From the IMG/VR virus record IMGVR_UViG_2548876958_000016: a stretch of DNA of 11,882 nt; one strand, written 5' to 3'. Source of the stretch: a virus (taxonomy: Duplodnaviria; Heunggongvirae; Uroviricota; Caudoviricetes). The notes beneath the pieces are model-generated. The model saw only the letters and a list, made by a program, of their open reading frames with translations. It was not told the DNA's origin and searched no databases. This document shows positions 1-11,882 of this stretch, piece by piece (position 1 is the stretch's first letter; each line of letters opens with the position of its first letter). The position numbers were made by a program, and so were the translations under genes.

Positions 1-609
1 TTGTCTGGAGATTCAGGGGGCCAGTCTACCAAAGAACTGGGCGAATTATTGCAGGCACTGGACAAAAAAATATTCTCCCCCTACTACATCGCGTTAATCC
101 ACCTCCTGATTGTGTTCGGATGCCGGACGGTAGAACTGAGGTTATCGGAGATCAGCGAGTGGGATTTTACCGAAATGCTCTGGACCGTGCCGAAAGAACA
201 CAGCAAAACGAAGGTGGCAATATTCCGGCCCATACCGGAAGCAATACTGCCGTTCGTCACGCAGCTGGTGGAGCAGAACAGGCACACGGGCTTATTGCTG
301 GGGGAAGTGAAACAGGAAACAAGCGTGTCGCAGTACGGCAGATTAGCGCACAGGAGGCTAAATCACCCTCACTGGTCACTACATGACATCCGGCGCACCT
401 TTACAACGATGCTGAGCGATTTAGGCGTGGATCCTCACGTCGTGGAGCAGCTTACAGGCCACCAGATGCCAGGAATGCAGCGAGTTTATAATCATTCCCG
501 TTATCTGGATGCTAAACGCAATGCGCTGGATATGTGGATGGAGCGGTTAGGGATACTGGCGGGAACACATGAAAACGTAACCGCACTACCAGCAGCCAGA
601 AGAAAATAA
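1..609 (+). CDS. Tyrosine integrase (P4/CP4-57-like), C-terminal 202 aa; 5' end lies left of the window
   Basis: Frame-1 ORF runs from window edge to TAA at 607-609. Translation carries the tyrosine-recombinase catalytic box: HDIRRTF (His-x-x-Arg) and RVYNHSRY (catalytic Tyr). Followed in the same orientation by an alpA-like gene, as in CP4-57 (intA then alpA). Confidence 0.85.
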   Translation: MSGDSGGQSTKELGELLQALDKKIFSPYYIALIHLLIVFGCRTVELRLSEISEWDFTEMLWTVPKEHSKTKVAIFRPIPEAILPFVTQLVEQNRHTGLLLGEVKQETSVSQYGRLAHRRLNHPHWSLHDIRRTFTTMLSDLGVDPHVVEQLTGHQMPGMQRVYNHSRYLDAKRNALDMWMERLGILAGTHENVTALPAARRK

Positions 610-8581: not shown

Positions 8582-8640
8582 TATGGACCCGTTACGGGGC
8601 GGCGACCTCGCGGTTTTTCGCTATTTATGAGCCTTTTCAG
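8582..8640 (+). other. cos site 1: lambda-type cosN with a divergent cosB-side flank, oriented toward the small terminase gene
   Basis: GTTACGGGGCGGCGACCTCGCGGTTTTTCGCTATTTATGA (8591-8630) matches, with one mismatch, my recollection of the lambda cohesive-end region (GGGCGGCGACCT then CGCGGGTTTTCGCTATTTATGA); the 12-nt cohesive-end sequence sits at 8597-8608. After TTTATGA the sequence diverges from lambda cosB. Confidence 0.75.
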
Positions 8641-9299: not shown

Positions 9300-9489
9300 T
9301 GAACAAAACTGAGAAACGACATGAAAGCGTCATAAATCGCCATTTTAGATGATTACCGTGTCGTTTCTTTTTATTGTGTATCTATTTAAAAACAAATAGT
9401 TATGTTCGAGAAGTACCGACATGCTTTTTCCAGAAAAATTTTCATAAACAGATAAAAACCGCGAGGTCGCCGCCCCGTAACGGGCCATA
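9300..9489 (-). other. cos site 2: inverted lambda-like cos (cosN plus cosB-like flank) on the minus strand, pointing back toward terS
   Basis: Reverse complement of 9454-9489 equals the site-1 core. Read on the minus strand it continues GGGCGGCGACCTCGCGGTTTTTATCTGTTTATGAAAATTTTTCTGG..., then CATAACTATTTGTTTTTAAATAGATAC, AAAAGAAACGACA and GTCGTTTCTC. These resemble lambda TTTATGAAAATTTTCCGG, the I1-region CATAACTTAATGTTTTTATTTAAAATAC and R-site-like GTCGTTTCC elements, from memory. Confidence 0.75.
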
Positions 9490-9539: not shown

Positions 9540-9821
9540 ATGACAGAAGCCGAACTACTGGGATTAATCCGCCGCGTCGCCGGAATCAGCCAGCAGCATG
9601 ACGAACAGGCCACACAGCCGGACAGCGTGACCGCTGAAAATTATGTGCGTGTTGTAGCGGAAGTGATGCGCCGTGATGGTATAGAACTTAATGGCGTTGA
9701 TATGCGCAACATACGGAACCGCGTTCTTGAAATGCTGGCCTACAATCGCCGCGTTGAACTGTATCGGGAGAAAGAAAAAATAACGTACCACTGGAAGAAG
9801 CCGGAATGGCTGCGGCGGTAA
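9540..9821 (+). CDS. Hypothetical protein (93 aa) in the terminal accessory position of the island
   Basis: SD GGGGG (9531-9535), 4-nt spacer. Translation MTEAELLGLIRRVAGISQQHDEQATQPDSVTAENYVRVVAEVMRRDGIELNGVDMRNIRNRVLEMLAYNRRVELYREKEKITYHWKKPEWLRR. No family recognised. Confidence 0.5.
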   Translation: MTEAELLGLIRRVAGISQQHDEQATQPDSVTAENYVRVVAEVMRRDGIELNGVDMRNIRNRVLEMLAYNRRVELYREKEKITYHWKKPEWLRR

Positions 9822-10421
9822 CTTGCTGATATTCCCGATAACGCAAAATTGCGCTGGCTACATCCCTCACATCTGAGGACTGTTAACCAGAAGGCCGGAA
9901 TATATTCACAAACTACGAAATTTTCGTAGTTTAATTAATGGTCAGATTAATCGCTAACCCGCTGATATTTTCGGAAACCTCAATTTGAGGAAGTCGGAAG
10001 CGTCACCCTTCATATTCTGAATGGTCATAATGACCACGCAGACCATCAAGGCAACCACAACGAACATCGTTACGGTTGGAGCTTTTACCCCACTGGGGGA
10101 AAGGTATTACGATAATCATAACACCTACCGAACAGGTAAAACCCACCAGCCTGATTAACAGTTAACCGGAAAAAAATCCGGTAGCCCCGTTATGGGGATC
10201 CCCATATCGACATTAACGCCCCTCATGAATTGGTGCGCTTCCCCCTGGAAAGATTACCCGCCTGTATATTTCTTGTGTCTATTTGTTCCACGTTGTTTCA
10301 TACAGTGCACCGAACGGTGTAGTTAATGGTGTAGTCAATTTGCTGTTTTTAGCACTTTTTGCAGTGTGGGTTGTTTAATTAAATCAATGGTTTGCCTTGC
10401 TGTGGTGATAAAAGGACATAT

Positions 10422-11882
10422 TTATTCATCTTTCGGCGCAGAATGCTGGCGACCAAAAATCACCTCCATCCGCGCACCGCCCAGCATGCTCTCTCCGGCG
10501 ACGATTTTACCCTCATATTGCTCGGTGATTTCGCGGGCTACCGCCAGCCCTACACCTTGCCCAGGGCGTAAAGTATCAACCCGTTGACCACGGTCGAAAA
10601 TGACCTCTCGCTTGCTTAATGGAATACCGGGGCCATCATCCTCGACCACAATATAGAGATGCTCGTCGGTTTGCCTTGCAGAAATTTCGACAAACTCGAG
10701 GCAATATTTACAGGCATTATCCAGCACGTTGCCCATCACCTCGACAAAATCGTTCTGCTCACCGACAAAGCTGATCTCTGGCGAAATATCGAGAGAGATA
10801 TTGACCCCTTTGCGTTGATACACTTTGTTCAGCGCTGAGGTGAGATTGTCCAGCAGTGGGGCGACCGGATGCAGCTCGCGGCTGAGCAATGTCCCGCCGC
10901 GCATACTGGCACGATGCAGGTAGTAGCCAATTTGCTGTGAAATGCGGCTGATTTGCTCCAGCATTACCGGCTCAGCATCACTGACGCTCATCTTTTCACT
11001 ACGCAGAGAACGCAGCGTACTTTGCAGCACCGCCAGTGGCGTTTTCAGACTATGGGTCAGGTCGGTGAGCGTCGTACGGTATTTGTCGTAACGTTCGCGT
11101 TCACTTTTTAACAATCGGTTCAGGTTTCGTACCAGACTGGTCAGTTCTCGCGTTGTGGCTGGATTGAGCAATTCGCGGTTATGTTCTTCCAGTTCGCGGA
11201 CTTCTTTTGCCAGGGCTTCGATGGGGCGTAAACTCCACCAGGCGGCGACCCACAGCAGCGGGATCACTAACAGCAGATTGGCTGAGAGCACATAGATAAA
11301 CCAGCTCCAGACCATATAGGAACTTTTTAGCTCCACCGGAATGGTATCCACCACCACAATGGTTAATTTTGGCATCCGCGATGTTGCCGGGTAGACGTTT
11401 ACTGCCACCGAGTGGGTCATCTCCGCGTCGTCATCATCTTCCCGCACTTCCTGCAACTGTTGCTGTATCGAATGATCTCCACTCAGCAAGAGGCTGGTAT
11501 CGTTAACATCCGCTTCAATTTCATGAAAACCATTCGATTTCAGCCAGTCAGGCTGGATCATCTTCATCAGCCAGGGCACGTCACGTTGCGCCCATAAAAG
11601 CTGCCCGTTCTCATCATAAATTAGCGTCATGGTGGGGCTTTGCTTGTCGATATTTTCGGGTAACTCGACATGCAACTTATTGTTTTCCCACTTCGCAAGG
11701 GTATAGAACAGATTGCTCTCGCCACGTAACAGCCGAAACGTAGTTTTATCGAAACTGACGCTATAACCGATCAGCGCGACCATTCCGTAGGCAAGCGAAA
11801 GCACCAGTACTACCGCAGCCGTTGCCAACAGAAAACGTACCCGCAGTGAGAGCGGGAAAAAAAGACGCAGTAATTTTTTCAT
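10422..11882 (-). CDS. phoQ: Sensor histidine kinase PhoQ of the PhoP/PhoQ two-component system (486 aa, complete)
   Basis: Translation begins [40 protein letters not shown]..., has the acidic periplasmic patch EDDDDAE, the phospho-acceptor His box ([12 protein letters not shown]) and G-box motifs (DDGPGIP, GQGVGL). It matches E. coli PhoQ as I recall it in length and sequence. The window ends exactly at its start codon. Confidence 0.97.

Follow-up and report, generated by a model that had tools for sequence, protein, structure and literature searches.

The DNA between the last gene of the island and phoQ (positions 9822-10413 of the 11,882-nucleotide stretch analysed here, IMG/VR record IMGVR_UViG_2548876958_000016, which we call the window) is recognisable as the right end of a PICI-type satellite that parasitises lambda-like phages. 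With slightly more belief than doubt, we read this satellite end as an attP arm joined to an array of repeats derived from phage roi genes, an array that would bind IHF together with a Roi-type protein of the helper phage and so act as an operator mimic. The features on which this reading is built are collected in the table.

Features of the right end of the satellite (window coordinates)
Feature	Position	Strand	Remarks
Last satellite gene, 93 aa, PHROG 1561	9540..9821	+	PHROG match 3.3e-57
Repeat unit 1	9819..9860	-	IHF consensus TATCAGCAAGTTA 9819-9831, then palindrome CGCAA-AA-TTGCG 9842-9853
Hairpin CCTCA-CATC-TGAGG	9865..9878		Part of a composite ~135-nt unit; recurs in related arrays
Palindrome AAACTACGAAA-T-TTTCGTAGTTT, 11-nt arms	9910..9932		Extends the palindrome 9913-9929
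Palindrome CTACGAAA-T-TTTCGTAG	9913-9929		Read from sequence
Repeat unit 2 (48-nt class)	9955..10002	-	IHF consensus TATCAGCGGGTTA 9955-9967; palindrome CCTCAATTTGAGG 9978-9990
Four hairpins	10007-10051 (with TGGTCATAATGACCA), 10052-10078, 10088-10098, 10102-10126		
Palindrome TGGTCATAATGACCA	10022-10036		Within a 22-nt imperfect inverted repeat, 10007-10051
Conserved block	10133..10221		CCCACCAGCCTGATTAA at 10142-10158, ACCGGA-A6-TCCGGT hairpin, 22-bp palindrome
Hairpin ACCGGA-A6-TCCGGT	10165-10182		Read from sequence
22-bp palindrome CGTTATGGGGA/TCCCCATATCG	10188-10209		Read from sequence
Integrase-specific arm segment	10262..10345	+	Direct-orientation repeat ~40 nt upstream of int
Arm-type site GGTGTAGTTAAT	10316-10327	+	First of tandem pair
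Arm-type site GGTGTAGTCAAT	10328-10339	+	Second of tandem pair
IHF consensus AATCAATGGTTTG	10382..10394	+	~20 bp from core; kept in the attP of a sister satellite
att core GGACATATTT (attR), 10 bp	10414-10423		Direct repeat, recurs at left junction
phoQ, host gene convergent with satellite late operon	10422..11882 (window end)	-	

The junction was mapped by alignment of the roxA-phoQ spacer of an island-free strain to the left and right junctions of a strain that carries the island. The phoQ side was matched by all 5426 complete E. coli genomes, and in the island-free genomes the match began only at window position 10414 or 10417; at least 80% of positions 9700-10600 was carried by 468 of the 5426. 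A preliminary description of this DNA had placed a probable island-chromosome junction between 9822 and 10421 and had proposed that alignment with island-free E. coli would uncover a direct repeat. The junction does lie in that interval, at its extreme right edge, and the alignment revealed the repeat, shared with the left junction. The core was found in the window, at the left junction of locus L001 and once in the island-free locus L002. Positions 9822-10421 as a whole are not identical to the island-free chromosome, and the palindromes within them are features of the island. Two bases of the phoQ stop codon (TAA, minus strand, 10422-10424) fall within the core; PhoQ is unchanged by the insertion, and its protein accession is the same in strains that have the island and in those that lack it. 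The junction is in itself routine and sets the right boundary of the satellite. Strains without the island have phoQ and roxA in the same orientation with 75 bp between them (L002 2934-3008), and neither a promoter nor a terminator was predicted in this spacer. The satellite leaves ~60 bp of native sequence (~62-67 by count) upstream of roxA and puts ~11 kb between roxA and phoPQ, and expression of roxA may be affected more than that of phoQ.

The genes in the window include those for a helicase/RepA, SSB, PerC, a lambda gpE-like major capsid protein, a gpD-like decoration protein, a Nu3/protease-C-terminal-like protein as Nu3-like scaffold, a Nu1-like small terminase (TerS) and the 93-aa PHROG-1561 protein. 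The best-matching complete genome has the same element in the roxA-phoQ interval, where its left end carries genes for a tyrosine integrase and an AlpA-like regulator. The element is thereby identified as a PICI-type phage satellite of lambda-like helpers. The window begins within the integrase gene (window 1-609 corresponds to aa 216-409 of the L001 Int), and the partial Int gives a 99% match to the L001 protein. No complete E. coli genome matches the window above ~98% overall, indicating that the window represents a mosaic variant. A 308-aa ORF (1221-2147) had no Pfam match, but its C-terminal 50 residues gave matches to PHROGs of the phage 'transcriptional repressor' kind. In described PICIs, the ori adjoins the pri-rep gene (PMC6092414). 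Two exact copies of lambda cosN, GGGCGGCGACCT, are present at 8597-8608 (+) and 9464-9475 (-), inverted around the Nu1-like terS; a 33-nt core is identical in the two, with similar flanks on the cosQ side and divergent ones on the cosB side. Two functional cos sites have been described in EcCICFT073 (PMC6092414). A cos site within the 600-bp interval was rejected, both lambda cosN matches being located outside it.

The 93-aa gene was always the last gene before the array, across satellites with differing packaging modules and att sites, and its TAA stop codon (9819-9821) forms the opening three bases of repeat unit 1. The protein was modelled as a three-helix bundle (pLDDT 75). It showed no sequence match in Pfam, NCBIfam or the PDB and no fold match, it was absent from the phage database, and its homologues were all close E. 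coli 'hypothetical proteins'. We considered it as the binding partner of the array and dropped this idea for want of any sequence or fold match.

The proximal ~160 bp of the satellite end (10262-10423) is, as far as its sequence allows it to be assigned, an ordinary attP arm of a tyrosine integrase, and the att machinery is apparently limited to these last ~160 bp of the interval. The segment 10262-10345 is ~75-80% identical to a segment just upstream of int, and both contain the tandem pair GGTGTAGTTAAT GGTGTAGT(C/T)AAT. Co-variation of arm and integrase was followed in ~80 related loci, with the L001 Int as reference. The GGTGTAGT pair was found in every locus whose Int was at least 78% identical to the L001 Int, and was missing at Int identities of 24-45% or 69%, the 69% locus having only ~200 nt after the conserved 17-mer. 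Where the left end of a locus was available, the pair was also present ~40 nt upstream of int. An IMG/VR contig (L036) proved to be a circularly permuted sister satellite in which the right arm, a core of the tqsA type (ATAACAGCA) and the left arm are contiguous and constitute attP. This attP spans positions 1-310 and the last 330 nt of the contig, with terminal overlap, and int follows the left arm. Such an intact attP implies that an excised or packaged form was present in a metagenome.

The characterisation of the interval as non-coding in the preliminary description holds, and the four palindromes that it named are all found where it had placed them. No conserved ORF was seen on either strand among 50 distinct relatives, no Rfam family was detected at gathering or permissive thresholds in the window and seven relatives, and the stretch contained no tRNA or tmRNA. 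A 47-codon ORF had been reported at 10021..10164; its start is correct, and it ends earlier and is shorter than reported (10021-10158, 45 codons and a stop). A plus-strand His-rich ORF and the hydrophobic minus-strand ORFs were rejected as unconserved, and the lengths of the repeat units are not consistently multiples of three. RNA folding of 9900-10230 gave z values of -5.85 for the minus strand and -5.71 for the plus strand against dinucleotide shuffles, none of 100 shuffles folding as well. The asymmetry of wobble pairs between the strands (42 vs 49) favoured neither strand as the RNA. Between 9500 and 10700 there were no intrinsic-terminator-like sites on either strand, the A/T run of the A7 hairpin being in the loop, and no sigma-70-like promoter was detected in the 600-bp interval. 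The preliminary description had further suggested that the insertion could alter phoPQ transcript termination or bring island read-through antisense to phoQ. A CsrA-type GGA sponge was rejected, since GGA was not notably enriched. An RfaH ops-like motif noticed by eye at unit boundaries, GGCGGTAAC, is one position off the ops consensus, and was dropped. The EHEC sRNA Esr41 was rejected as an identity for the stretch, as Esr41 sits in OI-43, and none of the Hfq-bound sRNAs listed for EHEC adjoins phoQ. The phoQ mRNA of EHEC Sakai (ECs1601) ranks 74 among Hfq-crosslinked mRNAs (PMC4104026 supplement).

Positions 9819-10006 can be recognised as part of a variable, degenerate tandem array, in which each unit pairs an IHF consensus with a palindrome at constant spacing. 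The commonest unit, of 48 nt, reads TAAC-NNN-YTGAT-ATTYYCG-RAAAC, followed by the palindrome and GRAGYCGG(CGCGG), and its conserved head is the IHF consensus WATCARNNNNTTR on the minus strand. Later units repeat the gene-end motif of unit 1. Five matches to the IHF consensus were present in the window, against 1.09 expected, and three of these lay within the 600 bp; across 50 distinct arrays there were 99 matches, all in a single orientation, where shuffled sequences gave about one. When 16 units were aligned, the invariant columns were exactly the positions of the IHF consensus, and its N positions varied. The units were picked by eye from one length class and the structure was taken from the same sequences, so that the following figures are indicative: 96% of palindrome cells were paired, compared with 75% in shuffles and 22-48% in slid controls; and double-sided changes were seen in 24 cells, compared with 7.8 in shuffles, a number reached by none of 500 shuffles. 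A perfect stem of at least 5 bp followed 83% of distinct IHF sites, compared with 12% in shuffles. The sequence of the palindrome thus appears to drift with its symmetry held by compensatory changes, and both the IHF consensus and the palindromes bear what look to be the marks of selection.

The units are evidently homologous to a segment of ~45 bp within roi/Rha/Ant-family genes of lambdoid phages. Unit 2 matched ~190 phage records (91% over 35 nt), always within roi, 'DNA-binding protein Roi' or 'anti-repressor' genes, and the phages included HK620, H-19B, HK75, P27 and many Stx phages. The unit reproduces nt ~120-165 of roi in HK620, H-19B and Stx phages almost exactly: 31 of 32 bases are identical in HK620 roi, palindrome CCTCAAATTGAGG included, the IHF consensus is at the same spacing, and the segment there encodes ...RLPQIEVSERINNL... 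An exact 16-mer of the repeat unit also matches inside the anti-repressor gene of phage D6, a member of the Rha/Roi/Ant family. The CCCCCATTGGGGG unit matches the roi allele of HK629, PA11 and Stx2-II, the TTTCCACAGACTGTGGAA unit matches a Roi-family gene of an Stx1a phage, and the CCTGCAATGCAGG unit, along with the IHF consensus, was found inside Roi-family genes of 36 viral contigs. The palindrome at 9910-9932 shares 24-26 identical nt with KilAC-antirepressor/Roi-like genes of Hafnia, Salmonella and Klebsiella phages, in which its counterpart encodes NYENFVV. The alleles of the phage palindrome are CCTCAAATTGAGG, CCTCCAATGGAGG and CCCCCAATGGTGG, and different units match different phage alleles. 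One common unit type, CAGCCAACGGCTG, had no roi or other phage counterpart in the collections searched. The copies in the satellite are non-coding and in tandem, and are not within a Roi/Rha/Ant coding sequence; no match to a roi-family gene was obtained among the window ORFs scanned against Pfam and PHROGs. In the phage genes themselves (roi/ant of HK620, L130; HK629, L131; and D6, L094; nt ~120-165), compensatory changes in the palindrome alter the peptide (PQIEV, PPMEV, PPMVV), and the cis element there evidently evolves together with the protein segment that it encodes.

The array was present in 1295 of the 5426 complete E. coli genomes (~24%), including O157:H7, O55:H7 and O111, and was never annotated. 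It occurred in satellites only, at a median of one and a maximum of six places per genome; the array as a whole was absent from the phage database, and one scan of genome contigs returned a single Shigella locus as the only relative outside E. coli. The 93-aa gene and the non-coding DNA that follows it recurred at the right ends of differing satellites, with packaging modules either of the lambda type or of capsid-forming PICIs with HNH, TerS and TerL, and integrated at phoQ, at tqsA, upstream of clpS or inside a prophage portal gene. The number of units ranged from 0 to 6 or more, and the satellites without any unit indicate that the array is dispensable for the basic life cycle. Nor is the array strictly bound to the 93-aa gene: in L127, a different element that bears AlpA and GGTTCA iterons, five IHF-consensus/palindrome units (oriented, ~440-1080) are present without the PHROG-1561 gene, flanked by the end of a host gene on one side and a gene of the PerC family on the other.

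The block at 10133-10221 was the most conserved piece of the interval, and was kept regardless of integrase type, even beside an unrelated integrase arm. The gap between the 93-aa gene and this block varied from 162 to 731 nt among 50 distinct versions. The hairpins of 10007-10126 are mosaic between satellites, and some of their stems need G:U pairs, on the minus strand only. Comparison of 10003-10270 with phage DNA gave borderline or chance matches only. The 22-bp palindrome (10187-10209) has a 23-nt exact match in unannotated intergenic DNA of the ~44-kb Escherichia/Shigella phages B2, Pubbukkers and StarDew (E = 0.07), which may be due to chance.

In the mechanism that we propose, the array would bind host IHF on the satellite DNA and, in the presence of an active helper phage, would also bind the Roi-type DNA-binding protein of that helper, making the array a multi-allele operator mimic adjoining attP. 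As a consequence, the array could titrate the helper regulator or, along with IHF, block transcription or bend the DNA at the end of the satellite. Binding of IHF to the array is likely, and binding of Roi is plausible; titration of IHF itself by the array is implausible because IHF is abundant. Roi is said to bind a site within its own gene beside an IHF site, with IHF stabilising the binding, and we take the segment internal to roi (nt ~120-165) to be this site. In hosts that lack IHF, phage growth is inhibited by Rha and Roi, and rha is under the control of IHF (PMC4936722, and the title of a 1996 paper by Clerget and Boccard cited in PMC3430580). A more ambitious version of the proposal, that the array is a set of operator mimics, copied from the self-binding IHF/Roi sites of many helper roi/Rha/Ant alleles, which captures or senses the early regulator of any induced lambdoid helper, is tentative, and we would sooner doubt it than believe it; such a set would interfere with the helper, or would time the excision or transcription of the satellite itself. 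An interface of this kind between satellite and helper is not known to have been described. The block at 10133-10221 and the hairpins of 10007-10126 travel with the array, and would not be explained by an operator mimic.

Other explanations of the stretch can be considered against the same data. There is practically no chance that it is, wholly or for the most part, host chromosome with the true junction at or before 9822: we found no point in support, the island-free genomes that match only from 10414 refute it, and the same sequence recurs at tqsA, upstream of clpS and in the prophage portal gene, always attached to a satellite. The array could instead be debris, a roi fragment that recombination with a helper captured a single time and that slippage and homologous recombination later multiplied and rearranged, in which case the hairpins, lying between the late operon, attP and the convergent host gene, would at most serve as generic insulators or 3'-end structures. 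The number and order of units do vary freely, with some satellites having none, unit 1 begins with the stop codon of the last gene, whose end motif returns in later units, and some minus-strand units score as terminator-like in a relative. However, the units match at least four different roi-family alleles, which a single capture does not explain, and neutral decay would have erased the IHF consensus and the palindromes, where invariant positions and compensatory stems are seen instead; the retention of the array in so many genomes also speaks against debris, which we consider unlikely.

Somewhat less probable again is a role as antisense RNA, in which the array would be the 3' tail of the late operon transcript and would pair with the roi/ant mRNAs of several helper alleles, silencing or destabilising them. 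All 99 units are in one orientation, antisense to roi along the late operon, in this window no predicted terminator separates the last gene from the array, complementarity to HK620-type roi is uninterrupted over 26-31 nt, and different alleles are matched by different units. The uniform orientation could nevertheless be explained by tandem duplication alone, and conservation within the units tracks the IHF DNA consensus, with its N positions free, rather than the target sequence. That the units never represent more than a single short segment of the gene speaks for a site rather than a target, and many relatives carry, as judged by eye, a canonical-looking plus-strand terminator hairpin in or beside the repeats. 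It is very unlikely that the minus strand of the stretch encodes a small hydrophobic protein such as a type I toxin. Hydrophobic minus-strand ORFs exist, the candidates being 9954-10067 (MFVVVALMVCVVIMTIQ...) and 10003-10146, and in some relatives an ORF of 23-49 aa ending in ...TIQP(M/V)TLIRIFR lies between promoter-like and minus-strand terminator-like sites. Against this, the relatives do not agree in reading frame, start or C-terminus, entire subfamilies have early stops, the hydrophobic stretch is a translation of the TGGTCATAATGACCA palindrome, there was no PHROG match and no Rfam toxin or antitoxin family, and the window has no terminator and poor promoter-like spacing. A type I toxin-antitoxin locus was accordingly rejected, the ORF being unconserved and Rfam giving no match.

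The operator mimic that we favour can be set beside several known arrangements. Like the att arms of lambda, P4-like elements and the Gram-negative PICI EcCICFT073, the satellite end has a short core at both junctions, arm-type Int sites on both arms, an IHF consensus by the core, 3'-end integration that leaves the product unchanged and, in a sister satellite, a recoverable circular attP. Unlike in those arms, the arm-type pair lies within a ~75-bp segment duplicated on both arms, and the non-coding end runs ~450 bp further past the arm. The repeat unit resembles the intragenic element of HK022 Roi and of the phi80 and P22 Rha genes, with the same ~45-bp sequence, IHF-palindrome spacing and shared palindrome alleles; the phage element, however, is a single copy in coding sequence (aa ~39-55), whereas the satellite has 0-6 or more non-coding tandem copies of mixed alleles. 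RIP/RIB elements (BIME-1; an IHF site flanked by REP palindromes) similarly combine an IHF consensus with palindromes, are extragenic at operon 3' ends and are mosaic and variable in copy number. In contrast to these, the satellite array is undispersed (median one place per genome, maximum six), and its palindromes are short, mutually different, derived from phage genes, and present as one per IHF site, all direct. The likeness to ICP1 PexA, which directs PLE excision (PMC6002521), is in concept only, that of a helper protein at or near the satellite att site reporting an active helper; the array is distal to the arm-type sites and variable. A CRISPR array was rejected, because it is the palindromes that vary here and all units trace back to one and the same gene segment; neither the annotated gene tables nor the scanned window ORFs contained a cas gene.

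No earlier description of the roi-derived array seems to exist: full-text searches for satellite, att-site or repeat literature and a reading of satellite or EHEC papers found no mention of it. About a quarter of complete E. coli genomes bear an unannotated array at a satellite att site, built from a regulatory segment of helper roi/antirepressor genes. If the array does bind the Roi-type proteins of helpers, satellites would have a new way of reading or disarming these phages, the repertoire of units would be a record of helper range and hence a sequence-based predictor of the phages that a satellite can exploit, and the array would offer a way into the Roi/Rha-IHF circuit of lambdoid phages, which is poorly understood.

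Two further structures were observed in related satellites. In many relatives (for example L006, 3570-3640 and 3775-3802), a small hydrophobic ORF (...VCVVIMTVQPVTLIRIFR) is enclosed by convergent terminator-like hairpins and a promoter-like site on the minus strand, TTTACA-16-AATGAT; the terminators are missing from the window. An extra insert of ~200 nt, also absent from the window, was present at 3290-3490 of L003 and at the equivalent positions of L008, L009 and L012, all of them capsid-forming PICIs. This insert is dense in hairpins with the mutually exclusive pairings AAACTACGG / CCGTAGTTT / GGGTAGT, and may be a structured RNA.
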